From the IMG/VR virus record IMGVR_UViG_3300028048_000069, positions 32,001 to 96,000 of that record: a stretch of DNA of 64,000 nt; one strand, 5' to 3'. A model generated the notes under the pieces. That model had not been told where the DNA came from, did not search any database, and worked only from the letters and a program-made list of their open reading frames with translations. Each line of letters begins with the position of its first letter. Position 1 is the stretch's first letter. A program made the translations under genes and the position numbers. Source of the stretch: a virus (lineage: Duplodnaviria; Caudoviricetes). Below, piece by piece: positions 24,629 through 48,279 of the stretch.

Positions 24629-24897
24629 AAGATAAACAAGAACTATTCGCCGAAAAAGTTAGAAAAATTACAAATGGAATAGCAGAACTTCTTATTGAAA
24701 AGAATAAGAGTTATGGTAATTCAGCATTAGAGCCTATAAATTGCTTTTATAAGGGTGATGCAGAAACCGCTATCAAAGTCCGTATAGACGACAAGTTATC
24801 TCGTATTATGCGCGGTAAAGAGTATAAGCAAGAAGATACCATTATGGATTTATTAGGTTATCTTGTTATTTTAAAAGTTAGTAAGGAAATGAAATAA
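24625..24897 (+). CDS. Nucleotide modification-associated domain 1 (DUF1599-like) protein
   Basis: KNKSYGNSA...VRIDDKLSRI...DTIMDLLGY. Confidence 0.75.
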   Translation: MKDKQELFAEKVRKITNGIAELLIEKNKSYGNSALEPINCFYKGDAETAIKVRIDDKLSRIMRGKEYKQEDTIMDLLGYLVILKVSKEMK

Positions 24898-25703
24898 TGC
24901 CTAAAATTGACCTTTATCAAGGTGATTGCCTAGCAGTAATGGATAAACTAATAGCCGAAGGGGTTAAGGTGGATTTGGTGGTTACAAGTCCACCATACGA
25001 TAATCTGCGAACATACAACAATACGCTGAATTGGAATTTTGATATTTTTAAGAATATAGCCAACAAGTTAAAAGACATTTTAGCAGACGGTGGTGTTATC
25101 GTTTGGGTGGTGGCAGATGCTACAATTAACGGGAGCGAAACAGGCTCATCTTTTAGGCAGGCATTATATTTCAAAGAAATTGGTTTTAATATACACGATA
25201 CTATGATTTATCGGAAATTGAATTATGTGCCATTAACACATAATAGATATGAGCAAGAGTTTGAATATATGTTTTGTTTTAGTAAAGGAAAGCCAAAGAC
25301 CTTTAATCCTATTAAAGTGCCTTGTAAATATGCTGGAACAGAAACTTGGGGTAATAGTTCTTTTTATAAAAAATCAGATGGCGAATTAGTAGATGTAGGA
25401 AAGAAAAAAGTAAATGATGAAAAAATAAAGGGAAATGTTTTTGAATATCGAACAGGAAGCGCAACCGAAAGTAAACAATATCATCATCCTGCTATGTTCC
25501 CATTAAAACTTGCACAAGACCACATAATTTCTTGGTCAAACGAAAACGACACCGTTTTAGACCCATTTATGGGTAGTGGCACAACAGGTGTGGCCTGCAA
25601 GATGTTAAACAGAAACTTTATTGGCATTGAATTAGATGAAAACTATTTTAAGATTGCCAAAGAAAGAATTGAAAATACAGTTGTGCCTAAAAGGTTATTT
25701 TAA
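24897..25703 (+). CDS. N4/N6 DNA methyltransferase (beta class)
   Basis: TSPPY before DPFMGSGTT; ends PKRLF. Confidence 0.93.
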   Translation: MPKIDLYQGDCLAVMDKLIAEGVKVDLVVTSPPYDNLRTYNNTLNWNFDIFKNIANKLKDILADGGVIVWVVADATINGSETGSSFRQALYFKEIGFNIHDTMIYRKLNYVPLTHNRYEQEFEYMFCFSKGKPKTFNPIKVPCKYAGTETWGNSSFYKKSDGELVDVGKKKVNDEKIKGNVFEYRTGSATESKQYHHPAMFPLKLAQDHIISWSNENDTVLDPFMGSGTTGVACKMLNRNFIGIELDENYFKIAKERIENTVVPKRLF

Positions 25704-28387
25704 TGGAAGCATATTTATCTCGCGGTAAGAAATTTATAGGAGATAGTATTATACTAAAGTTTGACTACGACCAAACTTTAGTTAATTTTGTTAAAGCACT
25801 TCCTTTAAGATTTTATGACCCAGATACAAAAACTTGGGAGATACCATTAGAGCAATTTCCTAGGTTTATTGATTTTTATAAAAAACCGATTACTCTACAT
25901 ATTTTTTATTCAAAGCCAAAAGATAAAAAAGAATTGGAAATACCTAGTGATTATAAATTTCCTTTTAATCCGTATCCACATCAATTAGAAGGAATTAAAT
26001 TTGGATTAAATCACGACAATTTTTTATTATCAGATCAACAAGGTTTGGGTAAAACAGTTCAATCCGCAACTATTGCTTGTATCCGTAAAAAGTTATATGG
26101 ATATAAACATTGTTTAATTGTATGCGCCATCAATGGTTCTAAATATAATTGGAAGAAGGAATGTGAGTTGTTTACTGAAGAAAAAGCACATATTCTAGGT
26201 ACAAGAACAACTAAAAATGGACACGAAGTTATTAAATCAAGTGTAGAGAAAATAGAAGATATAAATAATATTGATAACCTACCATTTTTTATTATTACCA
26301 ATAAAGAAACATTGCGAAATAAAGATATTATTAAGGCATTAGAAAAACAATCAGATAAAATAGATATGTGTATTTATGATGAAATACATATGTCTAAAAA
26401 TATTCAATCACAACAAGGTAAAGGATTATTAAAGGTAGATTGCGGATGCAAAATTGCTTTATCAGGTACACCAATTTTAAATAATCCATTAGATACCTAT
26501 ATGGTAATGAGATGGTTGGGATATGAAACCCATAGTATGACCGCTTATAAGCAAAGATATTGTGAATTTGGTGGTTATGGTGGGTATGAAATTGTTGGGT
26601 ATAAAAACATAAACGAATTAAAAGAAAGGTTTAGTGGTGTTCAATTAAGAAGATTAAAGGAAAACTGCCTTAATTTACCGCCAAAAATATATGAAACCGA
26701 ATATTTAGAATTATCTCAAAAACAAAGAATTTTATACAGTGAAGTATATAATGATATTGCCTTCAATGTAGATAATAAAGATTTAAGCCAAAACCCATTA
26801 GTTAGAACAATTAGGTTGAGGCAAGTTACAGCAAATCCAGCCATTTTGAGCGATAAAATAACAGATTCAGTAAAATATGATAGATGTATAGAGATGGTTG
26901 AAGAGTTAAGCAAAGAAGGCCGAAAATGCCTTATATTTAGCAATTGGGTAGATGTTATTAACCCATTGTATGTTTTACTCCAAAAATACAATCCTGCCCT
27001 AATAATAGGAGGAACAAAGGATATAGAGAAGGAAAAGAGCAAGTTAAATACAGACCCTACTTGTTCTTGTTGTTTAGGTACTATTGGTGCTATGGGAACA
27101 TCCCACACATTAACTGGGGCAGATACTGTTATATTTTTAGATGAACCTTGGAATAGAGGTACAAAAGAACAGTGCGAAGATAGATGTTTTTTGAAAGGTA
27201 CAGAAATTTTAACCCCTCTTGGTTTTAAATCCATAGAAGATATAAAAGTAGGGGATATGGTATACAGTGGAGATGGAAAAATTGTTAAAGTAAAAGATGC
27301 TTGGGTAACAAATTATAATGGAAATATTGCAAAAATAAAATTATGGGGGTCTAAAAAACCCATTTATTGTACAGAAGACCATAGATTTCTTGTTGATGGT
27401 AAGTGGATAGAAGCAAAACATTTATCTAAAGGTTCTATCTTATCATTTATAGAGAATAATAATAAAGACTATAATGATTTTATATATCCACCGAATTTAT
27501 GTAAATGTAAGAGAATATTTATAGGAAATAAAGGTCAATTAATTACAAATGGTAGACTTATAAATGCAAAGCCTATAAAAATAACTGATGAATTTTTATA
27601 TTTCTGTGGTTATTATTTAGGAGATGGATTTTCAAGAGTATCAGAGAGCGGAGGAAGTTGCATAGGTGTTTCAGGAAATACCTATAGTAAAATGGAAGCA
27701 TTAAAATTATGTAATAAATGGTTTAAACAAGTAGGACTTAAAACAAGTTATTTTAAATCAAAAAAAGACAAGGGTAATGAAATAAGGTCTTATAGTAGAG
27801 AATATGCTTTATGGTTTAAATATTTATTTGGCGATAACACTTATGAAAAACATTTTCCAGATTTTATTTATAAACTAAGTAATAGACAGTTAGAAATTTT
27901 ATTAAAAGGACTAAAAGATTCTGACGGTTATGTTAGAAAAACTCATCAATTTTCTTATTCAACCACTTCAAATAAATTATGTGCCAATGTATTATGGTTA
28001 TTATCTGTTTGTGGTTATAAGCCTTCTTATAGTTGGAGTAAAAGTTCAAAATGTTTTGTTTTAAATTGTATTTTAAATAAAGATTCTTCTAATTATAGAA
28101 TTAGAAGTGGAAAAATACGAAGTATAGAGTTTGAACATAAAAAAGATGTTGTTTATGATATTGAAGTAGAAGGAAATCATACTTTTGTTGTAAATAATAT
28201 CGTTGTCCACAATTGCCATCGTATTGGTACTAAAAATACAGTAAATATTATTACCTTTATTTGTAAAAATACTATTGATGAGAGAATAAATCAAATAGTA
28301 CAAGAAAAGGGTGAGTGGGCGGATTGTATTGTAGATGGAAAAGTTTTGAGAAAGTCCGAAGAAATTTTAAAGTTTTTATTATCGTAG
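25703..28387 (+). CDS. SNF2-family helicase containing an intein
   Basis: QGLGKT, DEIH, SGTP, EDR/CHRIG motif VI split by intein. Confidence 0.9.
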   Translation: MEAYLSRGKKFIGDSIILKFDYDQTLVNFVKALPLRFYDPDTKTWEIPLEQFPRFIDFYKKPITLHIFYSKPKDKKELEIPSDYKFPFNPYPHQLEGIKFGLNHDNFLLSDQQGLGKTVQSATIACIRKKLYGYKHCLIVCAINGSKYNWKKECELFTEEKAHILGTRTTKNGHEVIKSSVEKIEDINNIDNLPFFIITNKETLRNKDIIKALEKQSDKIDMCIYDEIHMSKNIQSQQGKGLLKVDCGCKIALSGTPILNNPLDTYMVMRWLGYETHSMTAYKQRYCEFGGYGGYEIVGYKNINELKERFSGVQLRRLKENCLNLPPKIYETEYLELSQKQRILYSEVYNDIAFNVDNKDLSQNPLVRTIRLRQVTANPAILSDKITDSVKYDRCIEMVEELSKEGRKCLIFSNWVDVINPLYVLLQKYNPALIIGGTKDIEKEKSKLNTDPTCSCCLGTIGAMGTSHTLTGADTVIFLDEPWNRGTKEQCEDRCFLKGTEILTPLGFKSIEDIKVGDMVYSGDGKIVKVKDAWVTNYNGNIAKIKLWGSKKPIYCTEDHRFLVDGKWIEAKHLSKGSILSFIENNNKDYNDFIYPPNLCKCKRIFIGNKGQLITNGRLINAKPIKITDEFLYFCGYYLGDGFSRVSESGGSCIGVSGNTYSKMEALKLCNKWFKQVGLKTSYFKSKKDKGNEIRSYSREYALWFKYLFGDNTYEKHFPDFIYKLSNRQLEILLKGLKDSDGYVRKTHQFSYSTTSNKLCANVLWLLSVCGYKPSYSWSKSSKCFVLNCILNKDSSNYRIRSGKIRSIEFEHKKDVVYDIEVEGNHTFVVNNIVVHNCHRIGTKNTVNIITFICKNTIDERINQIVQEKGEWADCIVDGKVLRKSEEILKFLLS
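27185..28213 (+). mobile_element. Intein with LAGLIDADG homing endonuclease (343 aa) in SNF2 helicase
   Basis: CFLKGT..., CTEDHRF, GYYLGDG, KGLKDSDG, ...VVHN/C. Confidence 0.93.
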
Positions 28388-28397
28388 GGGAATATAT

Positions 28398-29054
28398 ATG
28401 CCTAAAGATTGGGTTGGAAATAAAGCATCCACATTTAAGATGATAGCGGCCACAAACCATGCACCAGAAGGGTATGAAAGAGAGAGCAGAGATTTTTATG
28501 CTACAGAACCGAAAGCAGCAGAGTTATTATTAGAAGTAGAGCCGAATTTAACCAATATTTGGGAAAATGCTGCTGGAAAATGTCATCTTGCAAATGTATT
28601 CGAAAAAGCAGGTAAATTAGGTCGTAAATCAGACATTATAAATCGTATGGATGACCCAAATTTAGAAGTAAAAGATTTTTTAACTAGTAGTGGAAAGGGG
28701 TTATTAGGCAAAAAAGAAGTGTGGGATGGAGATATAGTTACAAATCCACCTTATGCATTTGCCCAAGAATGGGTAGAGAAATCTATAGAAACAGTTACCG
28801 AAGGTCATAAAGTTTGTTTGTTTTTAAAATTGACATTTTTAGAAGGACAAGCACGAAGGGAGATGTATAAGAAATATCCACCTAAAGTAGTGTATGTATG
28901 TTCTAGCAGAATATGTTGTGCTATGAATGGTGAGTTTGAAGTTGTTGATAAGAAAACAGGCAAAATGAAACCGATAGGTTCTGCAGTATGTTATGCTTGG
29001 TTTGTATGGGAAAAGGGGTTCAAAGGTGACCCAATAATTAAATGGATAAATTAA
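28398..29054 (+). CDS. N6-adenine DNA methyltransferase-like protein
   Basis: DFYAT, WENAAG.G-like SAM motif, VTNPPY, YAWFVW. Confidence 0.82.
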   Translation: MPKDWVGNKASTFKMIAATNHAPEGYERESRDFYATEPKAAELLLEVEPNLTNIWENAAGKCHLANVFEKAGKLGRKSDIINRMDDPNLEVKDFLTSSGKGLLGKKEVWDGDIVTNPPYAFAQEWVEKSIETVTEGHKVCLFLKLTFLEGQARREMYKKYPPKVVYVCSSRICCAMNGEFEVVDKKTGKMKPIGSAVCYAWFVWEKGFKGDPIIKWIN

Positions 29055-29066
29055 AGGACTGATTTT

Positions 29067-30773
29067 ATGAAAATAAGAAATGTTTTATCACTTTTTGATG
29101 GTATATCTTGCGGTCAATTAGCATTACATAGAGCAGGTATAGAATATGACACATATTATGCTAGTGAAATAGATAAAAATCCTATTTACATTACTCAATA
29201 TAATTTCCCCAATACAATTCAGTTAGGGGATGTAGAAAAATGGAAAGAATGGGATATTGATTGGAGTAAAATTGACTTGTTAATCGGCGGTAGTCCTTGT
29301 ACAAATCTTTCAATCGCTGGAAACAGAGAGGGGTTAGAAGGAGAAGAATCAAGATTATTTTACTCTTATGTAGATATTCTTAATCATATTAAAAAGTTTA
29401 ATCCTAATGTAAAATTTTTACTTGAAAATGTTGAGAGTATGAGTGATGAAAATAAAGGCATTATAAATAATTATATGGGGTGTAAGCCTGTTATGATAAA
29501 TTCAGCATTACTTTCAGCACAAAATCGTAAAAGATATTATTGGGTTAATTGGCATTTGAAAAAGGAAAGTTTATTCGGACTTCCCACCTGCACGATACCA
29601 CAGCCAAAAGACAAAGGCATTGTGCTAAAAGATATTTTAGAGAGTAGTGTTAAAGAAATTAAGGAGCCTAATTTAGCGCATTATTTGAGAGAGTTTGGTT
29701 CGAAAGGAAAAATATTACTGGATGATGAAAAAGCATCCACTTTAACTGCTGCTATGGGTGAAGGCGGTGGAAATGTTCCTTGTGTGGCAAATGAAGTTTC
29801 TCAAAAGTATTATTCTGGCAGAATTGTAGGGAGACCTTTAGATGAAAACGGAAAGAGAAAAGACAATGCCAATCTTGAACTTACGCAAGTTGTAGAAATA
29901 AGTTCCGACCCAAATAAAGCAAATAATTTAAGCACAGTTCAAAAAGATAATGTAATTGTAGAAAAAATAGATGCTAGTTGTTTAAGGTACGAAAGAACGG
30001 AAGAAGGTAAGAAATTAAGAAAACAGTATGAAAATGGTGAAATTAAACATGGTTATAATGAACATAGAATGTTATCACCTAGAACTGATGGTAAGACAAA
30101 CACTCTTACAACTGTAGAAAAAGATAATATGATTTTTGAACCTATTTGTGTAAATAGCCAAAGTGGTCGAGCAGATGGTTTAGCAAAACAACCTTCTTGT
30201 GCGGATAGAATTTATGATGTTAATGGAAAAAGTGTAGCATTGGCGAGTGGGTGGAAACAAAATATAGCAGAACCTATGAATAATTTTGTTAAAAAGAAGT
30301 ATGAAGAGTTTGCTACTGAAAAAGGGTATATTCCCACACAATTTAATCCCTATAATAAACAAGAAATTACTGATAAAGCACCTTCACAGACTACTAGAGC
30401 AGGTTCAACCGCAACAAGTAGCACTGTACTTATGTTCGAACCTTATAGATTAGGAACTTTAGAAGGTAGAAGTACAGGTCAAGCAAACAGAATATATTCA
30501 GTTCAAGGGAAATCTATTTGTTTAAATGCTAATGGCGGTGGTGGCGGTGCTAAAACTGGTTTATATAAAATAAATCTACCAGATGGGGAATATATTATAA
30601 GAAAACTTACTCCTATTGAATGCGAACGACTACAAACAGTGCCAGATAACTATACAGAATATGGTTTAAACGGAGATAAAAAGGTTAAAATTTCTAATGG
30701 TGCTCGATATAAAGCATTAGGAAATGGATGGACAGTAGATGTAATCAGTTATATATTTTCATTTTTAGTATAA
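29067..30773 (+). CDS. C5-cytosine DNA methyltransferase with very long variable region
   Basis: SLFDGI, GSPC, LENV, QNRKR, RKLTPIECERLQ, LGNGW. Confidence 0.93.
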   Translation: MKIRNVLSLFDGISCGQLALHRAGIEYDTYYASEIDKNPIYITQYNFPNTIQLGDVEKWKEWDIDWSKIDLLIGGSPCTNLSIAGNREGLEGEESRLFYSYVDILNHIKKFNPNVKFLLENVESMSDENKGIINNYMGCKPVMINSALLSAQNRKRYYWVNWHLKKESLFGLPTCTIPQPKDKGIVLKDILESSVKEIKEPNLAHYLREFGSKGKILLDDEKASTLTAAMGEGGGNVPCVANEVSQKYYSGRIVGRPLDENGKRKDNANLELTQVVEISSDPNKANNLSTVQKDNVIVEKIDASCLRYERTEEGKKLRKQYENGEIKHGYNEHRMLSPRTDGKTNTLTTVEKDNMIFEPICVNSQSGRADGLAKQPSCADRIYDVNGKSVALASGWKQNIAEPMNNFVKKKYEEFATEKGYIPTQFNPYNKQEITDKAPSQTTRAGSTATSSTVLMFEPYRLGTLEGRSTGQANRIYSVQGKSICLNANGGGGGAKTGLYKINLPDGEYIIRKLTPIECERLQTVPDNYTEYGLNGDKKVKISNGARYKALGNGWTVDVISYIFSFLV

Positions 30774-30797
30774 TATAGATACCGCAGAGAGAAACAT

Positions 30798-31589
30798 ATG
30801 ATTGAGACCAATAAAATATACAATGCTGATTGTATTGAATTTATGGGGGATATGTCAAAGGAGAACCTAAAGGTGGATCTCGTTTTGACATCTCCCCCTT
30901 ATAATACATCTAGAGTAACTGGTACTTTGGAAAATTATGAAAAAAGATACGATTGCTATCAAGAAGATAAAAGTAATGCCGATTATGACGAGTGGACATT
31001 AAATGTTTTTAAAGGGTTTGATAGTATTCTTAAAGAGAATGGGTGTGTAATTTATAATATTTCCTATGGCAACGAAAATCCAAGTCAAATGTTCACCTGT
31101 ATCAATAAAATTTTAGTAGGAAGTAATTTTACTATAGCAGATGTTATAGGGTGGAAAAAGCATAGTGCTATACCTAATAATGTTAGCCATAATAAATTAA
31201 CAAGAATTTTTGAATTTGTGTTCGTATTATGTAGAAAATCGGAATATTCTACTTTTTATTGTAATAAGAAGATGCTTAATAAAAGTATTACTGGCCAGAA
31301 AATATACGAGAATATTTATAATATAATTGATGCGCGAAATAATGATGAATCAACAAGTTTAAATAAGGCAACATTTAGCACAGAATTTGTTTGTAAACTT
31401 CTCAATATATACGGAAGGGAAAATGGATTGGTATTTGACCCTTTTATGGGTACAGGGACAACTGCTATCGCTTGTAAAAAATATGGTCTATCTTATTTAG
31501 GTACAGAACTATCAAAAGAACAATGCGAGCACGCCAACAGTAGATTGTCTGGTACTTCTTCCCCATTATTTAAACATAAGTTTAATTAA
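30798..31589 (+). CDS. N4/N6 DNA methyltransferase (beta class)
   Basis: TSPPY; DPFMGTGTT. Confidence 0.9.
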   Translation: MIETNKIYNADCIEFMGDMSKENLKVDLVLTSPPYNTSRVTGTLENYEKRYDCYQEDKSNADYDEWTLNVFKGFDSILKENGCVIYNISYGNENPSQMFTCINKILVGSNFTIADVIGWKKHSAIPNNVSHNKLTRIFEFVFVLCRKSEYSTFYCNKKMLNKSITGQKIYENIYNIIDARNNDESTSLNKATFSTEFVCKLLNIYGRENGLVFDPFMGTGTTAIACKKYGLSYLGTELSKEQCEHANSRLSGTSSPLFKHKFN

Positions 31590-31593
31590 TAGT

Positions 31594-31932: not shown

Positions 31933-31934
31933 AT

Positions 31935-32747
31935 ATGGGTAAAATATTGAATGATAAGTATTATACCCCCAAAGAATTAGCAAAAAGGCTTATAGAAACT
32001 ACTTTTTCTGTGTTGGGAAGGGATAATATAACAGATATCATCGAACCTTCTGCTGGGAATGGTTCTTTTTCTTCTCAAATTAACTGCAAAGCATACGATA
32101 TAGAACCTTATGGCGAAGGTATTATTAAACAAGATTTTCTAACATTAAACTTGTTTTATAAGAAGGGTAGATTAATAATTGGAAATCCGCCTTTTGGAAC
32201 TAATAATTGGATGTCGGTGAAGTTTTTTAAAAAGGCTTGTACATTAGGAGATTTTATAGCATTTATACAGCCTATATCTCAATTAGATAATAATATACAG
32301 ATGTATTATTTTGATTTGGTGTATTCGGAAGATTTAGGTATTGTAACATATACAGATAGAAAATTACACTGCTGTTTTAATATATATAAAAGACCTAAAT
32401 GTGGTATAAATACTAAACCAAGTTATGTTCTAAAAGATATAACTATAATTGAGCATAGAAGAAAGAAGGGAAATTATCAAACAGCAGAAAATAAGGAAAT
32501 ACTTCCCAATTATGATTATGCTATGTGTAATTGGGGAAATGGTAGTTTAGGTAAGGTACCTGAATTTGTTGGGCAGTATGCACAGGAAGTTTATTTTTAT
32601 TGCCACAATAAGGAATTTTTGCCAAAAATGTTAGAATTATTAGAGTTCAATGCCATTAGAAAATATGTGAACTCAATAAGTATGAAGCGCATATCTGTGA
32701 TGCGACTATACAAGTACCTTAAAGATAATATAGTAGGCATTAAATAG
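31935..32747 (+). CDS. N6-adenine DNA methyltransferase (gamma-like motif order)
   Basis: YYTP, EPSAGNGSF, GNPPF. Confidence 0.85.
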   Translation: MGKILNDKYYTPKELAKRLIETTFSVLGRDNITDIIEPSAGNGSFSSQINCKAYDIEPYGEGIIKQDFLTLNLFYKKGRLIIGNPPFGTNNWMSVKFFKKACTLGDFIAFIQPISQLDNNIQMYYFDLVYSEDLGIVTYTDRKLHCCFNIYKRPKCGINTKPSYVLKDITIIEHRRKKGNYQTAENKEILPNYDYAMCNWGNGSLGKVPEFVGQYAQEVYFYCHNKEFLPKMLELLEFNAIRKYVNSISMKRISVMRLYKYLKDNIVGIK

Positions 32748-32776
32748 TATAAAATTTATTTTAGTAAAATATAAAT

Positions 32777-33460
32777 ATGAACGATAAATGTATTTTCTTT
32801 GATGTTTGCCAAACAAAAGAGCATTGTTCAGTAGATTGTATAAGGTATGCCGAAATGACATACCTTATCAATCATAGTGGTTTGCCCGCTACATTGATTA
32901 AGCGCAATACATTGACACCAGATAAAGTAGATTATGATGCTTTTATGTACTTGGCTGATATTAAGGATGAAATAGTAGATTTTGTCAATAATGGAAGAAA
33001 TTTGTATATTTATTCCACTACTACTGGTAATGGTAAAACTACTTGGCTTTCAAAACTACTAAAATCTTATTTCAATCAAATTTGGGCAGGAAATGGTTTT
33101 AGAACCAGAGGCTATTATATTGACCTACCTGCATTTTTTATGGATCTAAAAGATGCTATCAATCATCCAAGCGACGATTTAGAAGAACGAAAGGAATTTC
33201 TAAAGAATGTAGATTTATTATGTGTTGATAGCATTTCTCCAATAACTGTAAGTGAATTTGAAATAAATCATTTGTCAAATATAGTTGACCATCGTATAAA
33301 CAATGGTCTGGCCACAATATATGGGTCTAATTTAGATGAAAATGGCTTATTAAGGTTCTTCGGAACGAGGTTAAAAAGTCGTATATTCAATAGTTCAGAA
33401 ATAATACGATTTCAGGGTGTTGATAGAAGGAGTCAGAAGTGGTCGACGCACAAATTTTAA
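32777..33460 (+). CDS. DnaC/IstB-like helicase loader ATPase
   Basis: TGNGKTT Walker A, SNL, SRI..S, GVDRR. Confidence 0.8.
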   Translation: MNDKCIFFDVCQTKEHCSVDCIRYAEMTYLINHSGLPATLIKRNTLTPDKVDYDAFMYLADIKDEIVDFVNNGRNLYIYSTTTGNGKTTWLSKLLKSYFNQIWAGNGFRTRGYYIDLPAFFMDLKDAINHPSDDLEERKEFLKNVDLLCVDSISPITVSEFEINHLSNIVDHRINNGLATIYGSNLDENGLLRFFGTRLKSRIFNSSEIIRFQGVDRRSQKWSTHKF

Positions 33461-38180: not shown

Positions 38181-38258
38181 TATGAAATACCGCGTGGTAA
38201 AGATATTAATGATTTAACTAAAGAAGAATTTGATGGGTTAAGAAAGGTTAGAGTATAA
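38181..38258 (+). repeat. Diverged duplicate of primase 3' end (relic of 37232-37309)
   Basis: Translates YEIPRGKDINDLTKEEFDGLRKVRV* versus primase YEIPRGKDINDLSKEEFYNLKMVSI*. Confidence 0.9.
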
Positions 38259-39028
38259 TGTCCGATATAAAATTATACAAAGGTGATTGTTTGGATGTGC
38301 TGAACACACTAGATGCTAATAGTGTTGATTTGGTTGTTACTTCACCACCTTATGATGACCTTCGTGAGTATAATTCTGTTATTGATTGGAAACAATTAGC
38401 AACCGCTTTGTACAGAGTAATAAAAGAAGGCGGAGTTGTGGTGTGGAATGTTAATGATAAAGTTATTGATGGTTCTAAATCATTGACATCTTTTAAGCAA
38501 TGTATTTTATTTAATGAAATTGGTTTTAATGTTAATGATGTTATGATTTGGAAAAAGGCTAATCCAATGCCACAAGTAAAACAGCCTAGGTATAATCAAG
38601 TATTCGAATATATGTTTATATTTTCTAAAGGAAAACCAAAAACATTCAATCCAATTATGGTAGATTGTAAATGTGCAGGTCAAAATTATGCTAGTACTTG
38701 TAAAAAGATTACTACAGGTAAAGAGCGCGAGTATAAAGAGTTTGAAATAAATAGTAAGAAGGTAGCCGATAATATTTGGGAATTTGCTATTTCTCAAAAT
38801 AAAACAGAACACCCTGCTGTTTTTCCATTGGAGTTACCTTTAAAACATATAAAATCTTGGTCGAATAAAAACGAATTAGTATTGGATCCATTTATGGGTA
38901 GCGGTACTACAGGTATTGCTTGTAAGATGCTGTTTAGAAATTTTATAGGAATAGAAATAGATGAAAACTATTTTAAATTAGCGGAGAGAAGAATATCTGA
39001 TACCTATGTTCCTACTCCATTATTTTAA
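38258..39028 (+). CDS. N4/N6 DNA methyltransferase (beta class), paralog of 24897
   Basis: TSPPY, HPAVFP, DPFMGSGTT; ends TPLF. Confidence 0.93.
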   Translation: MSDIKLYKGDCLDVLNTLDANSVDLVVTSPPYDDLREYNSVIDWKQLATALYRVIKEGGVVVWNVNDKVIDGSKSLTSFKQCILFNEIGFNVNDVMIWKKANPMPQVKQPRYNQVFEYMFIFSKGKPKTFNPIMVDCKCAGQNYASTCKKITTGKEREYKEFEINSKKVADNIWEFAISQNKTEHPAVFPLELPLKHIKSWSNKNELVLDPFMGSGTTGIACKMLFRNFIGIEIDENYFKLAERRISDTYVPTPLF

Positions 39029-39411: not shown

Positions 39412-39412
39412 A

Positions 39413-40132
39413 ATGGATAATATTATTTTATATAATGATGATTGTTTTAATCGGTTATCTGGGTTAAGTAATATAGATTTGATTGTTACTGACCCACCAT
39501 ATTCTTTTAAGGCTAAAAAGATAAAAGAAGGTAGTGGTGGAACAGTTAATAATCTTAAAAAATTTGATGTGAGTTTATTGAAGTTGAACGATAAGGATTT
39601 AATAAATTCATATGATATAGCAAAATTTGGAGATTTAGTTTTTAATTTGCAAAATGAAGTAAATGCTTATTTTTGGTGTAATAAAAATCAAATTCCAGAA
39701 TACCTAGATTTTTATGTAACTAAATATAAGTGTAAATTTGATATTATTTGTTGGCACAAGGTAAATGCATTACCTACATATGCGAATAAATATTTAACCG
39801 ATACCGAGTATTTATTATATTTTCACAATGGTAAGGGTAAATGTTTTCCGCAGAATTATGAAGATGCTAAAACCTATTACATAACTATGATAAACCACAA
39901 GGATAAAAAGAAGTGGGATCACCCTACAATTAAACCTTTAGATATCACAATGAAAGTAATACGAAATAGTAGCAAAGAAGGTGAGTTAGTGTTAGACCCT
40001 TTTATGGGCAGTGGTACTACTGGTTTGGCCTGTAAGATATTGGGAAGAAAGTTTATAGGTATAGAGATAGCAGAAGATTATTTTAAGATGGCTGAAGATA
40101 GAATTTTTGAAAAGAAAGGGGGTTTGTTTTAA
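39413..40132 (+). CDS. N6 DNA methyltransferase (beta class)
   Basis: TDPPY, HPTIKP, DPFMGSGTT; ends GGLF. Confidence 0.92.
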   Translation: MDNIILYNDDCFNRLSGLSNIDLIVTDPPYSFKAKKIKEGSGGTVNNLKKFDVSLLKLNDKDLINSYDIAKFGDLVFNLQNEVNAYFWCNKNQIPEYLDFYVTKYKCKFDIICWHKVNALPTYANKYLTDTEYLLYFHNGKGKCFPQNYEDAKTYYITMINHKDKKKWDHPTIKPLDITMKVIRNSSKEGELVLDPFMGSGTTGLACKILGRKFIGIEIAEDYFKMAEDRIFEKKGGLF

Positions 40133-40470: not shown

Positions 40471-41475
40471 ATGGCAACACTTGCAGTGAAGTATAGACCC
40501 ACCACTTTTGAAGATGTGTGCGGTCAACAGAATATTATTACTATTCTTAATAATCAATTAAGCACAAAATCTTTCAAAAATGCTTACCTATTTTGCGGTC
40601 CATCAGGTTGTGGTAAAACAACAATGGCTCGTATATTTGCTAAAAAATTAAATAATGGTGGCGGTTCAATAATTGAAATAGATGCCGCTAGTAATAATGG
40701 TGTAGATGATGTTAGGCAAATTATAAAAGACGCTCAATTCTTACCATTAGATGGTTCATATAAAATATACATATTAGATGAGTGCCATTTATTTAGTACT
40801 GGTGCTTGGAATGCAATGCTTAAACTTATTGAAGAACCACCTGCTAAAACCATCTTTATTTTTTGTACTACCGACCCACAGAAAATACCTTCAACCATCA
40901 TAGGTCGTGTACAAAGGTATAACTTTACAAAAATTAGTAGTAAGCAAATTATTGATAGATTAACTTATATTTTGAAGTCCGAAAATATAAATACTTTTGA
41001 TGGTTCTTCTTTACAACTTATCGCTAGATTATCAAAGGGCGGTATGAGAGATAGCATAACCACACTTGAGAAATGCCTAGGATTTAGCAAAAACCTTACT
41101 GTAAGCAATATTACACAAGCCTTGGGGGTAGTGGGTTACGATAGTATGTTCTATGTGTTTAAAGCAATTATAGAGCATAAAACAGATGATGTTTTATCGC
41201 AGATAGAAACCCTTTATCTTAATGGGTTGGATATAAAGGTGTTTGTAGTAAGTTTTTTACAATTTGTATTGGACATTTCTAGATACATAGTAACAAAAGA
41301 TTTTTGTGTTAGTTATCTTCCAGATGATTATAAATCAAAGATAGATGGATTATCACTTAATAAAGAGCAACTAGCAAATTTAGTGGATGGGTTGGTTAAA
41401 TTAAATAGTTATATAAAGTATGAATCCAATCCATTTGTATTTGTTCAAGCATTTCTATTAAAGGTATCTATATAA
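40471..41475 (+). CDS. dnaX: Clamp loader ATPase, DNA pol III gamma/tau-like
   Basis: LAVKYRP, GPSGCGKTT, IDAAS, DECH, LKLIEEPP, GGMRD. Confidence 0.92.
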   Translation: MATLAVKYRPTTFEDVCGQQNIITILNNQLSTKSFKNAYLFCGPSGCGKTTMARIFAKKLNNGGGSIIEIDAASNNGVDDVRQIIKDAQFLPLDGSYKIYILDECHLFSTGAWNAMLKLIEEPPAKTIFIFCTTDPQKIPSTIIGRVQRYNFTKISSKQIIDRLTYILKSENINTFDGSSLQLIARLSKGGMRDSITTLEKCLGFSKNLTVSNITQALGVVGYDSMFYVFKAIIEHKTDDVLSQIETLYLNGLDIKVFVVSFLQFVLDISRYIVTKDFCVSYLPDDYKSKIDGLSLNKEQLANLVDGLVKLNSYIKYESNPFVFVQAFLLKVSI

Positions 41476-42266
41476 TGATTGGTCAGAAGTTATTTGCTAC
41501 CTATTTAAGCAATTGGACTATACCGCCTCATTTTATTATTTTGAATGGGGAAGTAGGTTCTGGTCGTTCCACAATTATAGAAGAAATTAAGAAGAAATTT
41601 AAGTATAAATCGGTGTTATGCGGAACTTCTACAGAAGAAGTTAGGCAGATAGTAGATATGGCATACACTGTAGAGACACCTGTTTTTTATATATTTTACA
41701 ATGGGGAAAAATTATCATCTAACGCTAAAAATGTGTTGCTTAAAGTAGTTGAAGAACAGCCTAAAAATGCATTTTTTATAATGAGAACAGAGTCTGGTAC
41801 TATAGAAACATTAAAAAATCGTTCATTCTATTATAATATACAGCCATATTCTTCTTCGGAGTTAAAAGAGTATTTTTCTAAACAGAATAAAGAAGATGTT
41901 TATGATAATTATGGCGAAATATGTAAAAATATAGGGCAGATAAAAATATTTTTAGAGATGGATTATGAAGGGTTGATTGATTATTGTGATATGATTGTTA
42001 CAAAGATTAATCGTGCGTCACAAGGTAATGTGTTTAATATAACACGAAAGATTGATTTTGGTGATAATCCTAATGGTTGGGATGTACAACTATTTATAAA
42101 TGCTCTTGAGTGGAAGTTAAAAAATGCTTACAAAACAACCAAAGAAGATAGGTTTTTTCAAGCAATTTTTAGATTAAATTCTTTTAAGTCGCAGATTAAA
42201 ATAAATGGTGTGAATAAATCGGTCGCATTAGATAATTTTTTACTAGGGTTGAGAACATTATTATGA
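41475..42266 (+). CDS. holB: Clamp loader delta-prime-like subunit
   Basis: MIGQ, degenerate Walker A GEVGSGRS, AKNVLLKVVEEQP, ETLKNRS. Confidence 0.7.
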   Translation: MIGQKLFATYLSNWTIPPHFIILNGEVGSGRSTIIEEIKKKFKYKSVLCGTSTEEVRQIVDMAYTVETPVFYIFYNGEKLSSNAKNVLLKVVEEQPKNAFFIMRTESGTIETLKNRSFYYNIQPYSSSELKEYFSKQNKEDVYDNYGEICKNIGQIKIFLEMDYEGLIDYCDMIVTKINRASQGNVFNITRKIDFGDNPNGWDVQLFINALEWKLKNAYKTTKEDRFFQAIFRLNSFKSQIKINGVNKSVALDNFLLGLRTLL

Positions 42267-43192
42267 ACTTGGTTGAGTTAAAAACAAGAATGTCTAAAAA
42301 GGATATTCCTAATTTTTTAATTTTTACTGGCCCAGAACTTGGGGTTCTTAACACATATATTGGTAAAATAGGATCCATAATAAATACAGCAATTAAAAGA
42401 AGAGAAACTGTGTCGAGCGCATTGGAATTATGCCGAAGTAAATCTATTTTTAATAAAATAAATTTTGTAGTTGTAACAGATGACAATGATTTTTTAAAAA
42501 ATGAAACTGCTTGGGATAAGGTAATTATGCAGTTAGGAGATAATATTTTATTACTCCACTATCATACATATGATAAACGATTAAAATTTTGGAATAAATT
42601 TGCAGACCAAACTGTCGTTTTTGATTACCTTAAACCAAATGTAATAGCAAAGCATTTGTGCAAAGATTATGGGTTAAGTGAATCTTTCGGAGAATTGATT
42701 GCAGAAGGGTGCGGATGTGATTATACTCGTTGCTTGTTAGAAGTAGATAAGATTAAAAATCTTTCTGATGCTACTCATCAATCTATAGATGAAGTGTGCT
42801 CAAACAATCTAAAAACAGGTATAATTTGTTTTGATAAAGATGTGAATATTAATCCATTTGTTGAAGCATTTTTAAGAAGAGATTTATCATTAGCATATTC
42901 ACTATATGAAGAACTATTATTGCAAGGTGAGCCAGTTTTAAGGATGCTTTCTTTTCTGTATAATGCCTTTAAAAATGTTTTAATAGTGCAGACCGCTACA
43001 AGTACTTATAAACTGCGAGAAACCACAGGCATAACCTATTATGGAGAAATAGAAGGAAAAAAGTTTAAGGGCAATTATAGTGATGTAGAACTTGAAAATA
43101 TACTATACATTTTGATGTGGTTAGAGCAAGGCATAAAGAGTGGCACAATACAGCCAGAATTTGTTGTTGATTTTTTGTTGGTAAATTTGTAA
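42263..43192 (+). CDS. holA: Clamp loader delta-like subunit
   Basis: LIFTGPE, DKRLKF, LLEVDKI, GEP...L, IKSG patterns; third gene of loader cluster. Confidence 0.7.
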   Translation: MNLVELKTRMSKKDIPNFLIFTGPELGVLNTYIGKIGSIINTAIKRRETVSSALELCRSKSIFNKINFVVVTDDNDFLKNETAWDKVIMQLGDNILLLHYHTYDKRLKFWNKFADQTVVFDYLKPNVIAKHLCKDYGLSESFGELIAEGCGCDYTRCLLEVDKIKNLSDATHQSIDEVCSNNLKTGIICFDKDVNINPFVEAFLRRDLSLAYSLYEELLLQGEPVLRMLSFLYNAFKNVLIVQTATSTYKLRETTGITYYGEIEGKKFKGNYSDVELENILYILMWLEQGIKSGTIQPEFVVDFLLVNL

Positions 43193-43206
43193 TATAGGAT
43201 TGTGTT

Positions 43207-43374
43207 ATGAAATTCTTAAAACTAATATACAAGAAGTTTTTCGTCGGTAAAGAGAAGAAAACATATACTTGTTGTAGGAGGTGTGGTAAGCAATTAAAAA
43301 GTAAAGAAAGTCGTAAGTTGGGTTTAGGAAAATGTTGTTATAAAAAAGAGTTGTATAAAAATAAATTATTCTAA
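43207..43374 (+). CDS. Small Zn-finger protein (DUF6011-like)
   Basis: CRRCGKQLKSKESRKLGLGKCC; ends NKLF; not in ORF track (<60 aa). Confidence 0.6.
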   Translation: MKFLKLIYKKFFVGKEKKTYTCCRRCGKQLKSKESRKLGLGKCCYKKELYKNKLF

Positions 43375-43401
43375 AAACTGTGGTTGTATGGGGAGGGTGA
43401 A

Positions 43402-44253
43402 ATGAAGGTTGACAGTTATTCTTTTAGAGCCTTTTATTCAGGGCACTATGATTCAAAATTGGACTCAAAACCAGGTGAATACTTGGTAATGAACTACCAA
43501 AAAGCAACAAAACTACTAGACGATTCTCTCGTCGATTTATCTCAAAAATTTAAGACACAGGAGAAGTACCTAGCATTTAAGGAAAAATTGGAGAATTTAA
43601 AATCTCAATATTTTTCTGCTTTATGCAATAGGTATATGGGTGTTGTATTTAATTCTGGTCGTCGCATTATAAGTAATTCAATCTCTGACTCGGATATGAT
43701 TAGTTATGGGGAAGAAGTACTGTTACAATGCGCTTTGAAATATAAGTTTGATAAGAAGATTTCTTTTATAACTTATTTTACCAATGCGGTGTTTAATATG
43801 TCTTACACATTAGTAAGAAAGAAACACTTTAGAGATTGGAATATAAATATGGCATCCTTGAACACACTAATGGAAATTGATGACCGAATAAGTGAGTTAT
43901 CTGAAGATAAAAAATTTATTCCAGCCAAAAAGAAAAAGCCATTAGTAATAAAGCCATCAAAAATAAATGAAGAGTTAGATAAGATACTTTTTAACCCAGA
44001 ATTGGCTGAATCTATAAAGGTTAAGTTGGGTATTAAGGATGACTTGTTTTTGCATTATTTAATATTGAAAACAAAGCACAAAAAGTCAACTATTAATTCC
44101 GACGAAACAGAAAAACTATCTTATTTAGAACCCATTTATGAAAATGACTATAACAATTTTAGTAAGATATATATGTATGAGTCAGATATTGACGATTACA
44201 GAGAAAAAATTCAAAAAAATCGTATAAAAGAGGAAATACTATGTCAAGAGTAA
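43402..44253 (+). CDS. Sigma-factor-like protein
   Basis: DMISYG..VLL.CALKYKFDKKISFITY region-2-like segment; GGGAGGG RBS. Confidence 0.5.
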   Translation: MKVDSYSFRAFYSGHYDSKLDSKPGEYLVMNYQKATKLLDDSLVDLSQKFKTQEKYLAFKEKLENLKSQYFSALCNRYMGVVFNSGRRIISNSISDSDMISYGEEVLLQCALKYKFDKKISFITYFTNAVFNMSYTLVRKKHFRDWNINMASLNTLMEIDDRISELSEDKKFIPAKKKKPLVIKPSKINEELDKILFNPELAESIKVKLGIKDDLFLHYLILKTKHKKSTINSDETEKLSYLEPIYENDYNNFSKIYMYESDIDDYREKIQKNRIKEEILCQE

Positions 44254-44864
44254 CAACAGAACAAGCAAGAAAAATAACAACTTCAAATTCAAATGGCTAT
44301 TTTAGCCTTAAAGATGATGGTGATAAAGCCACTGTTAGATTTATGTACAACAATGTTTCAGAAATTGAAACCTATTCTGTACACGATGTTACCATAAATG
44401 GGTTTAATAAGCATGTAGATTGCTTAAAAGATGCTGAAGGTAATGGAGTATGCCCATTTTGTGAAAAGGGTGTAAAACGAACTGCTAGAACATTTTTTAA
44501 ACTGTACAATGTAGATAATGGCGCGGTTGAAATTTGGGATTGTGGTATTAAACGCGCACCAGGTTTAGAAAATATTTTAAAGATGTCTCGGTCGCCGAAG
44601 TTGGTAAATGATGTTTTTGAAATTGTACGACATGGTAAAGCAAAATCTACCGATACGACCTATGAACTTATTTATAAATCTTCTGATGATGTTACCTTGG
44701 AAGAACTTCCGAACTCACCAGACCTTTATAGTAAATATATTCTAAAGAAATCTCCCGAAGAAATGGAATATTATATTACTCATAATGAGTTCAAACCTAC
44801 AGGTGAACAATCAGCCAAATCTGATGCTACTGTTACCAAAAGAGTAAATAGGAGTGTCTTTTAA
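44241..44864 (+). CDS. Single-stranded DNA-binding protein (phage type)
   Basis: FSLKDDGD.A.VRF, CPFC, RHGK...T.Y pattern; directly upstream of polymerase. Confidence 0.7.
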   Translation: MSRVTTEQARKITTSNSNGYFSLKDDGDKATVRFMYNNVSEIETYSVHDVTINGFNKHVDCLKDAEGNGVCPFCEKGVKRTARTFFKLYNVDNGAVEIWDCGIKRAPGLENILKMSRSPKLVNDVFEIVRHGKAKSTDTTYELIYKSSDDVTLEELPNSPDLYSKYILKKSPEEMEYYITHNEFKPTGEQSAKSDATVTKRVNRSVF

Positions 44865-47188
44865 TGGCATTGTTCGCACCTAGGTCTAGTAGGGAACTCG
44901 ATAAGAAGATAATACAGAAAGCACATTCTGTAAAAAGTGTTTTTGTCGGTAGTTCTAAAGGTGCAAAAAGGGGGCTATCTGAAAGGATAGCCTCCGCCGA
45001 AGTTGAAGTAAATAGATATTTTAGTAAGTTTAAAGATGATTTTTTAATTATTCGTACAGAAGAAGAATTAAAAAATTATGTAGATAATATTATAAAAGAT
45101 GGAATTGTAGCCATCGATACAGAAACTGATGGGTTGGATACCTTTAACGGAACATTAGCAGGTATCTGTCTGTATAGTCCTTCAAATAAAGCATCCTATA
45201 TTCCTGTTCACCATGTATCCTATATTACAGGGCAAGAAGTTAATAATCAACTAAAAGAAGATATTATTAAAAAGTACTTTGAAAGGGTAGTTAATGCTAA
45301 TGTAAAAATAATTATGCATAATGCCTCTTTCGATTTAAAAGTATTTGCAAATTTAGTAGGTATTAGATTGCCTTGTTATTGGGATACAATGATTGCTTCT
45401 AATATTTTGAACGAAAATGAACCGCATGGTTTGAAAGCACTTCACGATAAATATTGCGGAGATGGTACAGGTGTATATAGCATTACAAATTTGTTTGAAG
45501 GAATTATATTTACTCACGTTCCGATAAAATTGGGTTATTTATATGCTGCTCGTGATGCTAAAATGACTTATGAGTTATATAAATATCAAAGCCAATTCCT
45601 ATGTGAAAACCCATCAAAAGAACACGAAGATTTGAAGTCTTGTTATGATGTGTTTATGAACATAGAAATGCCATTGGTGCCTGTCATTTTAGATGCAGAA
45701 CTGCGCGGAGTTAGATTAGATTTAGCAACTGCGGATAAATTGAAAGAAGAATATAATGCTAAATTGGCTGTTTGTAAGGAACAATTTACAGCGATAGTTG
45801 AACCGATAAAAGATTTAGTATTACAGTTTATTAGAACACATACTACAATTACATCTAAACCTAAACTTGAATGGCCTATCAATTTTGATTCACCACTGCA
45901 GATAAGTGAATTACTTTTTAATGTGCTAAAGGTAAGTGATAAAAATGGTAAGAGTACAGGTGTTAAAGAACTTAATGCTATTATGGAAAGCACCAAAAAT
46001 GATACAGTTCGAAATTTAATTAAAACCTTACTTGAGTACAGAAAAGTACAAAAACTATTGACCACTTATATTGAGAAATTGCCTAATGAAGTAAATCCTA
46101 AAACAGGTAAAATTCACTGCAACTTCAATCAGTATGGAACAGTAACTGGTCGTATGAGTTCTAGTTCACCGAACTTACAAAATATTCCTTCAAAGAATAA
46201 AGAAATTAGAAAGATGTTTGTAGCAGATGAGGGGTATTGTTTAATCGGTGGAGATTATTCACAGCAAGAACCGCGTATTTTAGCACATATGAGTGGAGAT
46301 GAGCAGTTAATACACGCATACACTACTGGTAAGGATTTATATGCACATGTAGGTTCTTTAGCCTTAAAAGTACCTTATGAAGATTGTTTGGAACATTACC
46401 CAGATGGTAGTGTAAATCAAGAAGGTAAATTAAGAAGAAGTAGAATGAAGGCCATTGTGTTGGCTTTAATGTATGGTAAAGGAACTAAAGCATTGGCAGC
46501 CGATTTGAAAATATCTTTGGAAGATGCCTCATCCCTTATGAAATCCTTTTTTACAGAATTTCCTAAAGTTAATGAGTTTATCAATAAATCACAATCATTC
46601 GCTAAATGTAATGGGTATGTAAAAACATTGTGGGGAAGAAAACGAAGGCTACCAGATATGCTTTTAGACCCTTATGAATTTAGTTATGCTAATGGGGTTA
46701 GTAGAGATTTTGACCCATTAGATGATATTGATAGTGATGAAACCAATGATTTAACTGTCGATCCAGTTTTAGTACAAAAATGGACAGCAAGATTAAATAA
46801 AGCATTTGGTTCTTTTAAGAAACGAGAAGTAATTCAGCAAGCATTAGCAGAAGATAATATTCAAATAAAGGAAAATAGTCTTAAAATTGCTGATGCTGAA
46901 CGACAGACAGTAAATAGTATTATTCAAGGTTCGGCTGGAGATATGGTTAAACGCGCTAGTATTTTGTGTTATAACGATAAACGACTACAAGATATGGATT
47001 GCCATATTTTAATTTGGGTTCACGACGAAATAATTTCTACAGCACCTATCAAATATGCTAGGGAATGTGCAAAAATTATTGATGAAAATATGAAAAAAGC
47101 CGCAGATAAATTAGTAGTTCCTATGAAAACGGACTTTGAAATAACCAAAATTTGGTATGGTGAAGAAATTGATTTTAGTAAGATATAA
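44864..47188 (+). CDS. polA: Family A DNA polymerase with 3'-5' exonuclease
   Basis: IDTET, HNASFD, YAARDA; TGRMSSSSPNLQNIP, DYSQQEPR, K...L..MYG, IQGSA, VHDE. Confidence 0.95.
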   Translation: MALFAPRSSRELDKKIIQKAHSVKSVFVGSSKGAKRGLSERIASAEVEVNRYFSKFKDDFLIIRTEEELKNYVDNIIKDGIVAIDTETDGLDTFNGTLAGICLYSPSNKASYIPVHHVSYITGQEVNNQLKEDIIKKYFERVVNANVKIIMHNASFDLKVFANLVGIRLPCYWDTMIASNILNENEPHGLKALHDKYCGDGTGVYSITNLFEGIIFTHVPIKLGYLYAARDAKMTYELYKYQSQFLCENPSKEHEDLKSCYDVFMNIEMPLVPVILDAELRGVRLDLATADKLKEEYNAKLAVCKEQFTAIVEPIKDLVLQFIRTHTTITSKPKLEWPINFDSPLQISELLFNVLKVSDKNGKSTGVKELNAIMESTKNDTVRNLIKTLLEYRKVQKLLTTYIEKLPNEVNPKTGKIHCNFNQYGTVTGRMSSSSPNLQNIPSKNKEIRKMFVADEGYCLIGGDYSQQEPRILAHMSGDEQLIHAYTTGKDLYAHVGSLALKVPYEDCLEHYPDGSVNQEGKLRRSRMKAIVLALMYGKGTKALAADLKISLEDASSLMKSFFTEFPKVNEFINKSQSFAKCNGYVKTLWGRKRRLPDMLLDPYEFSYANGVSRDFDPLDDIDSDETNDLTVDPVLVQKWTARLNKAFGSFKKREVIQQALAEDNIQIKENSLKIADAERQTVNSIIQGSAGDMVKRASILCYNDKRLQDMDCHILIWVHDEIISTAPIKYARECAKIIDENMKKAADKLVVPMKTDFEITKIWYGEEIDFSKI

Positions 47189-47205
47189 ATACAGAGGTAC
47201 AAACA

Positions 47206-48279
47206 ATGAACATTAAACTAAAAACTGAAGAACTAAAAGATGCAATTAATAAAATTGTAAAAGGTTTGGGAAATAATAAAATGTTGCCCATTACCGAAAT
47301 GATAGGTATAAATGTAGATAAATCTACCTTGTCATTAGTATCTACTGATGGTACAAATAAAGTACAAGTAGTAATACCTATCGAAGGGGATAACGAACCT
47401 ACATCTTTTGTGGTAAATGGTAAGACATTCTCTCAATTGGTTTTAAAAACAACAACAGAGTTTATCAATTTATCCGTAGAAGATGGAAAATTGGTTGTAA
47501 AGGGTAATGGTAGTTATTCTTTTTCATTTCCCACTGATGAAGATGGTGAATTTATTGTAATTCCAAATGTAGAAGTAGATAAGGATACTAAAGTTGAATT
47601 ATCAGCCGAAGATTTGAAAAATTCTTACAATATCAATAAATCATCCGTATCAGTTACTATGGAAACCCCTGCATATACAGGTTTCTATTATGACGATAAT
47701 GGATCTGTAGCCACAAATTCATTGAAAATTAGTTATGTAAATAAGAAATTATTTAGTAATCCTATCTTATTGAATGCAAAACTTGCAAGTTTGTTTTCTA
47801 TATTACCAGAGGAAAAGGTATATGTTTATCAAGGAAATTCAGAAATTGCTTTTGAATCTGGTAATGTAACAATCCAAGGATTTAAAATGGATGATGTGAG
47901 CGAGTTCCCTATCAATGATATTATTCCATTTTTAACCGCCGATTTACCACATAAGGTTAGATTGAATAAAAAGGCATTATTAAACCTTTTAGAGCGCATC
48001 GCAGTATTTGTAACTCCCTTTGATAAAAACTCAATTAAAATTGATTTTACGAAGAATGGTGTGCGTGTATGGACATTGGATGGTATCAATAATGAAATTA
48101 TTCCATATACAGATTCTGAAAATGTAGAAGAAACTTCAATCAAAGTGGATGTAACGAACTTTAAGGATTTAGTAGGTTCTAACCCAGAAGAAGAATTAGT
48201 AATTATGTATGGGCATCCAGCGGCCATTAAAATGACCTTTGGAAATGTTTCTCAAGTATTAGCACTAGTAGGTGAATAA
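47206..48279 (+). CDS. dnaN: Sliding clamp, DNA pol III beta-like
   Basis: 357 aa, three-domain beta-clamp pattern (L.L.STDG, ATNS..I, EFP, LLERI); adjacent to polymerase; clamp loader nearby. Confidence 0.75.
   Translation: MNIKLKTEELKDAINKIVKGLGNNKMLPITEMIGINVDKSTLSLVSTDGTNKVQVVIPIEGDNEPTSFVVNGKTFSQLVLKTTTEFINLSVEDGKLVVKGNGSYSFSFPTDEDGEFIVIPNVEVDKDTKVELSAEDLKNSYNINKSSVSVTMETPAYTGFYYDDNGSVATNSLKISYVNKKLFSNPILLNAKLASLFSILPEEKVYVYQGNSEIAFESGNVTIQGFKMDDVSEFPINDIIPFLTADLPHKVRLNKKALLNLLERIAVFVTPFDKNSIKIDFTKNGVRVWTLDGINNEIIPYTDSENVEETSIKVDVTNFKDLVGSNPEEELVIMYGHPAAIKMTFGNVSQVLALVGE

Follow-up and report, generated by a model that had tools for sequence, protein, structure and literature searches.

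Why would a phage set nine DNA methyltransferase (MTase) genes among its replication genes, and why would several of the encoded enzymes end in the same two residues, leucine and phenylalanine (LF)? The question arises in a window of 64,000 nucleotides, the whole stretch of DNA analysed here, which comprises bases 32001–96000 of virus record IMGVR_UViG_3300028048_000069 (136,046 bp, 30% G+C). Nearly all genes lie on the plus strand, and matches to Pfam and PHROGs place a replication module at window positions 24897–50683. A preliminary description of this DNA had proposed that unrelated MTases converged on the LF end, ride the phage's own sliding clamp by means of it, and methylate new DNA ahead of host restriction. 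Our comparisons indicate that the LF ends are a selected peptide motif and point to the phage clamp as their probable partner.

The genome encodes 11 DNA MTases, nine in the window and two of the beta class just outside it. By class, the nine comprise five beta-class enzymes (PF01555), one D12/Dam enzyme (PF02086), one C5 enzyme (PF00145) and two recognised by PHROGs only. Their placement amid replication genes was confirmed by Pfam, PHROGs and motifs, and the translated C-termini read as the preliminary description had claimed: five MTases have a terminal LF, a sixth ends SSPLFKHKFN, and the product of 43207 ends NKLF. The MTases and this small protein are as follows (window positions unless marked as genome positions).

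24897–25703, plus strand: beta-class N4/N6 MTase (PF01555 at 1.2e-47, domain end at residue 256 of 268) with a 10-residue tail ending VPKRLF
28398–29054, plus strand: small N6-adenine MTase-like protein without an LF tail (phrog_799 at 6.5e-50; NPPY at residue 116; PF05869 below cut-off)
29067–30773, plus strand: C5-cytosine MTase (PF00145 at 7.5e-37) without a terminal LF
30798–31589, plus strand: beta-class MTase (PF01555 at 5.9e-34) with an LF in the homologous place of the tail, ahead of KHKFN
31935–32747, plus strand: MTase-like protein without a tail (phrog_799 at 4e-15, phrog_5172 at 6e-26; GNGSF as motif I and NPPF as motif IV; no Pfam match)
34716–35402, plus strand: beta-class MTase (PF01555 at 8.2e-20) ending SKKRLF
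37306–38178, plus strand: D12 (Dam-type) MTase (PF02086 at 2.3e-33) with a 12-residue extension past the fold end ESLYVK, ending EQIKLF
38258–39028, plus strand: beta-class MTase (PF01555 at 8.1e-48) ending VPTPLF
39413–40132, plus strand: beta-class MTase (PF01555 at 5.3e-29) ending KKGGLF
43207–43374, plus strand: DUF6011 protein of 55 residues (PF19474 at 3.3e-8), a possible further client
Genome 30670–31419: beta-class MTase outside the window, ending KIRKLF
Genome 97718–98455: seventh beta-class MTase, tail-less, ending NRIEKCSN, 1,718 bases past the window end

The last of these, the only tail-less beta-class MTase of the genome, lies outside the replication module. As the preliminary description had stated, no restriction endonuclease family was recognised by Pfam or PHROGs among the open reading frames (ORFs) of 24499–50683, several small ones of which are unannotated, and the cognate endonuclease that stands beside the MTase in a type II restriction-modification system was not found there. 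With many MTases and no recognisable cognate endonuclease, the set resembles the orphan multi-methyltransferase sets of phages, which are described as anti-restriction, but accounts of those sets include neither a shared appended tail nor an association with replisome genes.

Terminal LF was found on eight of 181 ORFs genome-wide, compared with 0.66 expected from the LF dipeptide frequency of 0.36% per position (Poisson P = 5e-7). Six of the eight are MTases, and in a seventh MTase five residues come after the LF, so that beta-class MTases, the D12 MTase and the DUF6011 protein, which are unrelated, share the tail in this phage. The six LF-bearing beta-class paralogues are 22–55% identical, and in their alignment LF falls 5–7 residues past the last fold helix. 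Since the paralogues carry their tails at the same alignment position, these tails are not convergent within this phage. The claim of convergence therefore fails for the five beta-class tails, which are homologous in position, and the alignments leave only the D12 enzyme, of a different fold, as a clearly independent case here; convergence across families appears only when related genomes are compared. The likeness to the QL(S/D)LF type of beta-clamp motif likewise held in part. Only the 37306 product (EQIKLF) matches Q-x-x-L-F, whereas VPKRLF, SKKRLF, VPTPLF and KKGGLF keep L-F alone, as basic residues plus LF. Internal LFs are present as described (KKESLF at residue 165 of the C5 MTase, KKGLF in the 31594 product, EKGLF at residue 92 of the 61038 ORF) but were no commoner than expected, chance giving about two per 570 residues.

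The tail lies outside the catalytic fold. It begins past the last Pfam position of the MTase domain, and a solved relative from H. pylori (5hfj) ends three residues past the final helix, without a tail. A 35-residue fragment of the 24897 product ending in the tail had a predicted local distance difference test (pLDDT) value of 46 in a co-fold. As in known clamp clients, the motif sits in a flexible terminus outside the folded domain, and the linker varies in length and sequence among close orthologues. Among 90 cleanly anchored orthologues of 24897 (62–89% identity), 27 have LF in the tail and 23 have tails of at most five residues, and the closest (82–89% identity) keep LF on a wholly different linker. 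By an eye tally, 12 of 26 LF tails in this set have Q at position −5 (Q-x-x-L-F), and some have D after LF. In the D12 family, most of 120 orthologues stop 0–6 residues from the fold end ESLYIK, and the few long extensions nearly all end in LF or MF. These comparisons show the tail to be non-random, optional, outside the fold and selected at the amino-acid level. In agreement with the preliminary description, we conclude that it is a genuine peptide motif, under selection and appended to the finished catalytic domain. We also note a sequence 98% identical to 24897 (P0002) that reads EQGGLGLWQS where the LF end stands, which may be a frameshifted or remodelled tail.

If the tail is a docking peptide, the best candidate for its partner is encoded in the same module. 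The clamp, its loader and two adjacent genes are listed here.

40471–41475, plus strand: clamp-loader gamma/tau-like subunit (PF13177, PF12169, PF22608)
41475–42266, plus strand: clamp-loader delta-prime-like subunit (PF13177)
42263–43192, plus strand: clamp-loader delta-like subunit (PF21694)
44864–47188, plus strand: family-A DNA polymerase (PolA) with 3'-5' exonuclease, starting MALF (PF00476 at 7e-93, PF01612)
47206–48279, plus strand: beta-type sliding clamp (DnaN), 357 residues (PF00712 at 1.8e-14)
48279–49031, plus strand: Cas4-like nuclease, starting MRLF (phrog_1706 at 1e-38)

The clamp ORF scored 26.0 against PF02767, for which the cut-off is 27. It has 1085 representative relatives at E ≤ 1e-3, and a profile built from 106 relatives matches 41 solved beta clamps over positions 1–336 (best 7evp, E 1.2e-21). 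By this full-length match, ORF 47206–48279 is a true DnaN homologue, a clamp of the beta type. It is accompanied by a full loader set (gamma/tau, delta-prime and delta) on three ORFs that adjoin one another (40471–43192); the phage encodes its own clamp and three-subunit loader, as had been proposed. When the delta-like subunit, which has SIF at about residue 61, was aligned to solved delta subunits in search of a counterpart to the clamp wedge of E. coli delta, no match to delta was found.

We then compared 65 viral loci around relatives of this clamp, with 1650 ORFs. LF was the commonest C-terminal dipeptide, ending 89 of the 1650 ORFs compared with 6.2 expected (14-fold). Ends in L[FW] were found on 26 of 27 DpdA-like transglycosylases, 13 of 16 small ligase-like proteins, six of seven C5 MTases, all eight beta-class MTases and all five DUF6884 proteins, and scattered LF ends were seen on primase, helicase, homing endonucleases, GNAT, PAPS-reductase-like proteins and other enzymes. 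The N-terminal MALF of PolA, which the preliminary description had pointed out, is conserved in kind: all 51 orthologues start M-[A/P/SG]-L-F, and none ends in LF. Within this genome the N-terminal M-x-LF count (two, 0.66 expected) is not significant alone. The corresponding claim for the Cas4-like nuclease did not hold, and we rejected its MRLF as a motif; it is not conserved in 56 orthologues, which read CRLI at an internal position.

The same two ends occur in the cultured Streptococcus phage Dp-1, whose DNA 7-deazaguanine transglycosylase DpdA (gp7, 3793–4728 of L197; G and L labels denote records and loci in our survey) ends NRQRRLF and whose PolA (gp71, 9539–11878 of L198) starts MAQKGLF. 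The DNA of Dp-1 carries dPreQ1 (PMC6884629), and a paper on the Dp-1 host interactome does not mention DnaN. Dp-1 offers a tractable cultured system for the question of the tails.

The survey of 80 viral contigs with D12 relatives showed that the MTases of one contig tend to behave alike irrespective of family. All nine MTases of G004 (218 kb; five beta-class, four D12) end in an [LI]FD type (LFDM, LFDL, IFDF, LFDEI), seven beta-class enzymes and one D12 enzyme of G012 (363 kb) end in LW or LF, all four MTases of L002/L003 end KLF, and none of the seven MTases of L066 has a tail. A tail type that is set per genome, across families, calls for a common partner evolving together with it. The family-B polymerase (PolB) follows the same pattern, ending EGLW in G012, VPLF in G016 and G011, and QPLF in G014; it shares the genome's tail type in four of four tailed genomes compared with none of six tail-less ones. 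In G005, of the LFD type, a weak PolB match of 748 residues ends SMFEEFF. No PolA was found with PF00476 in 48 D12-derived records.

Some single cases from these genomes deserve mention in their own right. In G002, a 491-residue ORF with an intein C-terminal splicing block (6921–8393 of L201) lies among split PolB pieces, ends AFNKLF, and may be the polymerase's C-terminal extein. In G014, a 673-kb record, a C5 MTase is apparently split into adjacent ORFs of 296 and 160 residues that both end ALF (1892–3261 of L203). The same genome, whose MTases and PolB end LF, encodes an M13-family peptidase of 672 residues ending RAKLW (2880–4895 of L202), which could be chance or an unexpected client.

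Tails also track phage clamp machinery, as had been predicted. Among records at least 90% complete, a loader-like gene or DnaN was present in four of five tail-bearing records and none of 12 tail-less ones (P = 0.002), and among all records PF13177 exceeded its cut-off in eight of 19 tail-bearing compared with one of 29 tail-less ones; the contigs are related and many are fragmentary, so that Fisher tests overstate independence and the P values are indicative only. Taken over the genomes compared, the sequences show that unrelated enzymes of one genome have the tail in common, and that it varies in step with the polymerase end and with the presence of genes for a clamp or loader.

The preliminary description had suggested co-folding the tails with the 47206 clamp as a check. 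We co-folded the clamp dimer with residues 234–268 of 24897, supplying alignments for both. The interface score (ipSAE) was 0.39, 0.40 and 0.36, compared with 0.02 for the best control, which lies above the controls for this tail but amounts to a verdict of 'weak support' and adds little by itself. The mark applied is reached by 58 of 80 solved complexes and two of 110 mismatched pairs; those that reach it with a score at or below 0.60 include only seven of the 80 solved complexes, along with both of the passing mismatches. The runs agreed in at least 91% of contacts, with a pLDDT of at least 46 for the partner and 92 for the clamp.

That the tail serves as a docking peptide is almost certain. 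We propose that this short LF peptide, carried on a variable, flexible linker, has been appended to post-replicative DNA-modifying enzymes, and that it most likely enters the hydrophobic partner cleft of the phage beta-type clamp, which would be loaded by the phage loader. On the comparative evidence, this clamp is the best candidate partner of the LF tails, and probably the true one. PolA seems to rely on the same pair of residues, placed at its start. Clamps remaining on fresh duplex would gather up to seven MTases of different specificities, and the phage genome would be methylated during copying. We infer the clamp as partner from a tail that is selected, tracks clamp genes and mirrors a polymerase motif; the coupling of methylation to replication and the evasion of restriction are proposed roles of such docking. 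To this extent the preliminary description is partly supported; its statements on convergence, on the Cas4-like and internal LFs and on the likeness to the canonical motif need correcting.

We lean, if only slightly, towards a broader rule suggested by the related genomes. Many large phages may use a genome-specific 'tool-belt code', in which a two-to-four-residue terminal tag (LF, LW or LFD-x) copies the clamp-binding end of the phage's own polymerase and is placed on essentially all post-replicative DNA-modifying enzymes. These would include DpdA, four or more MTase families and, probably, ligase-like proteins and others. The chemical marking of the phage's own genome would then be tied physically to the fork, the first case beyond eukaryotes of DNA modification coupled to a clamp.

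Several observations weigh against the clamp as partner. Four MTases in the window lack a terminal LF tail, which means that not every one of them can depend on tethering. Only one of seven tails (that of 37306) has the glutamine that is important for binding to E. coli beta (PMC11139829). The PolA of this phage ends IDFSKI, not LF, and the role of its MALF as a clamp motif is itself inferred. The co-fold falls in the weak band, and no interface was reported. In addition to the relatedness of the contigs, the tail-less class is impure: MTase-like ORFs of L024–L026 end EKLFEI, EKLFEIRE or EKLFMYKNKNSK, and one of L006 ends NRIFAE. G042 (the record of L066, 41% complete) has a clamp-loader match but seven tail-less MTases. 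Finally, we found no confident clamp in the large phages of the LW and LFD types, where the profile of this clamp gave no match and PF09116, the family of the gp45 C-domain, gave one weak match (G012, E 0.0055); loader-like genes and polymerases are present in these phages.

The main rival is that the tail docks on another shared partner, such as the host beta clamp, the clamp loader, the DnaB helicase, the single-stranded DNA-binding protein (SSB) or another replisome hub. The comparative data point to a common, co-evolving partner without naming it, the Q-x-x-L-F tails of the orthologues would also suit the host beta clamp, and the failure to identify a clamp in the LW- and LFD-type phages fits this alternative as well. 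We nevertheless regard it as rather unlikely, since the polymerase has the same motif and polymerase termini are classical clamp ligands (PMC2988020), the tails are found together with loader or clamp genes of the phage, and the co-fold with the phage clamp scored above its controls, albeit in the weak band.

A second alternative is that the C-terminus is a degradation tag of the ClpX type, which would confine the enzymes to a time window. The tails here are indeed basic and then hydrophobic (KRLF, KKRLF, IRKLF), and the C-terminal ClpX signal of MuA resembles them. A tag of this kind would leave unexplained why members of these enzyme families can instead have acidic LFD-x or LW tails, why polymerases end alike, why PolA has its LF at the N-terminus and why there is a link to clamp-loader genes, and we consider it improbable. 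Least credible of all, and rejected here, is that LF is a non-functional by-product. It could stem from a word that couples stop and start (TTATTTTAATG, found at 25695 and 35394, and as the variant TTGTTTTAATG at 40124), which the preliminary description had itself considered and which would predict conserved nucleotides, or from AT-rich codon bias and common descent, given that TTA and TTT are the commonest codons in this 30% G+C genome and the beta-class MTases are paralogues. Against this, the coupled ATG is missing at 37306, 38258 and 43207, eight codon pairs and each of the three stop codons occur among the 89 LF ends around clamp relatives, 66 of which lack a downstream ATG within 12 nt, LF persists in the closest orthologues though the linker differs, the same motif occurs on the unrelated D12 fold and at the N-terminus of PolA, and GC-richer genomes have LW or LFD-x tails.

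Docking on the phage clamp has partial parallels in known systems. Bacterial beta clamps bind Pol II, Pol IV, Pol III alpha, delta, Hda and MutS/L through motifs related to QL[S/D]LF (PMC11139829). The tails described here are similar in being short motifs in a disordered terminus that end in L-F, often at the C-terminus (N-terminal in Hda), in a phage with a DnaN homologue. They differ in that most are glutamine-less, basic residues plus LF, that the clamp is phage-encoded, and that the clients are DNA MTases, together with DpdA in relatives, neither of which is mentioned in that 2024 review, where 'methyl' occurs nowhere in the text. In T4 and RB69, gp43, gp33 and gp55 bind gp45 by near-identical C-termini on divergent linkers (PMC2988020). 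Giant relatives of our phage likewise put the same hydrophobic or acidic ends on PolB and MTases, and the sharing of a tail by unrelated proteins through divergent linkers was found here and, for many more families, in relatives. A replicative polymerase that ends in the client tail was seen with PolB in G012, G016, G011 and G014, but not in this phage, where the polymerase is of family A with an N-terminal LF, the clamp belongs to the beta-type dimer family and is no gp45 trimer, and DNA-modifying enzymes take the place of transcription factors as additional clients.

The coupling of DNMT1 to PCNA (PMC9690074) is similar in logic, as an MTase with a clamp-binding peptide favours newly replicated, clamp-bearing DNA. 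However, there is no homology of motif, enzyme or clamp; no PIP box (Q-x-x-[LIM]-x-x-[FY]-[FY]) was found in the tails, and the clamp here is of the beta type. Further, in this phage a single tag would be common to many enzymes with differing specificities, presumably to protect its own DNA from restriction and not to maintain an epigenetic pattern. Our literature search returned DNMT1–PCNA, and no clamp-binding bacterial or phage MTase or DpdA was described in what it found.

If the tails bind the clamp, phage methylation, and DpdA hypermodification in Dp-1-like relatives, would be recruited to the replisome rather than left to free diffusion. This could explain how a phage with many MTase specificities protects each new genome copy ahead of host nucleases. 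It would add DNA-modifying enzymes to the client list of bacterial-type clamps. The rule that a terminal tag equals the polymerase end would predict, from sequence, which phage proteins act on nascent DNA, and dependence on one cleft may be a weak point that could be blocked in phage defence or engineering.

The replication module also encodes a DnaC/DnaA-like ATPase, a Holliday-junction resolvase and a RecA/UvsX-like recombinase within 24897–50683, as well as the following.

25703–28387, plus strand: SNF2-family helicase with an intein and without a tail (PF00176, PF14890, PF00271)
33439–34716, plus strand: DnaB-type helicase ending DKEDIF (PF03796)
35402–37309, plus strand: Toprim primase with an inserted intein bearing a LAGLIDADG domain (Pfam)
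44241–44864, plus strand: SSB with a conserved C-terminal F (phrog_14578 at 1.1e-39)

By Pfam, inteins with LAGLIDADG-like domains split both the SNF2 helicase and the primase. Three of these replication proteins have recurrent ends of their own. Each of the 19 DnaB orthologues has F as its last residue and a hydrophobic residue before it, mostly as D[VI]F, an acidic D[VIL]F type, and 14 of 31 primase orthologues end in a hydrophobic residue and F (for example NLQELF) in an NL.E[ILV]F pattern; the partner of the DnaB and primase tails may be that of the LF tails or a different one. The C-terminal F of SSB was tried as a member of the LF set and rejected, being a distinct conserved tail: the end is basic (NRSVF here, RRDRF or RREAF in the orthologues of L131–L195), unlike LF and unlike the acidic tip of bacterial SSB. 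A megablast search with 20 kb of sequence against a phage collection found no relative. Directly upstream of the module (22314–24452) are genes for an F420-0:gamma-glutamyl ligase-like protein and an IMPDH/GMP-reductase-like protein, which are unusual phage auxiliaries.

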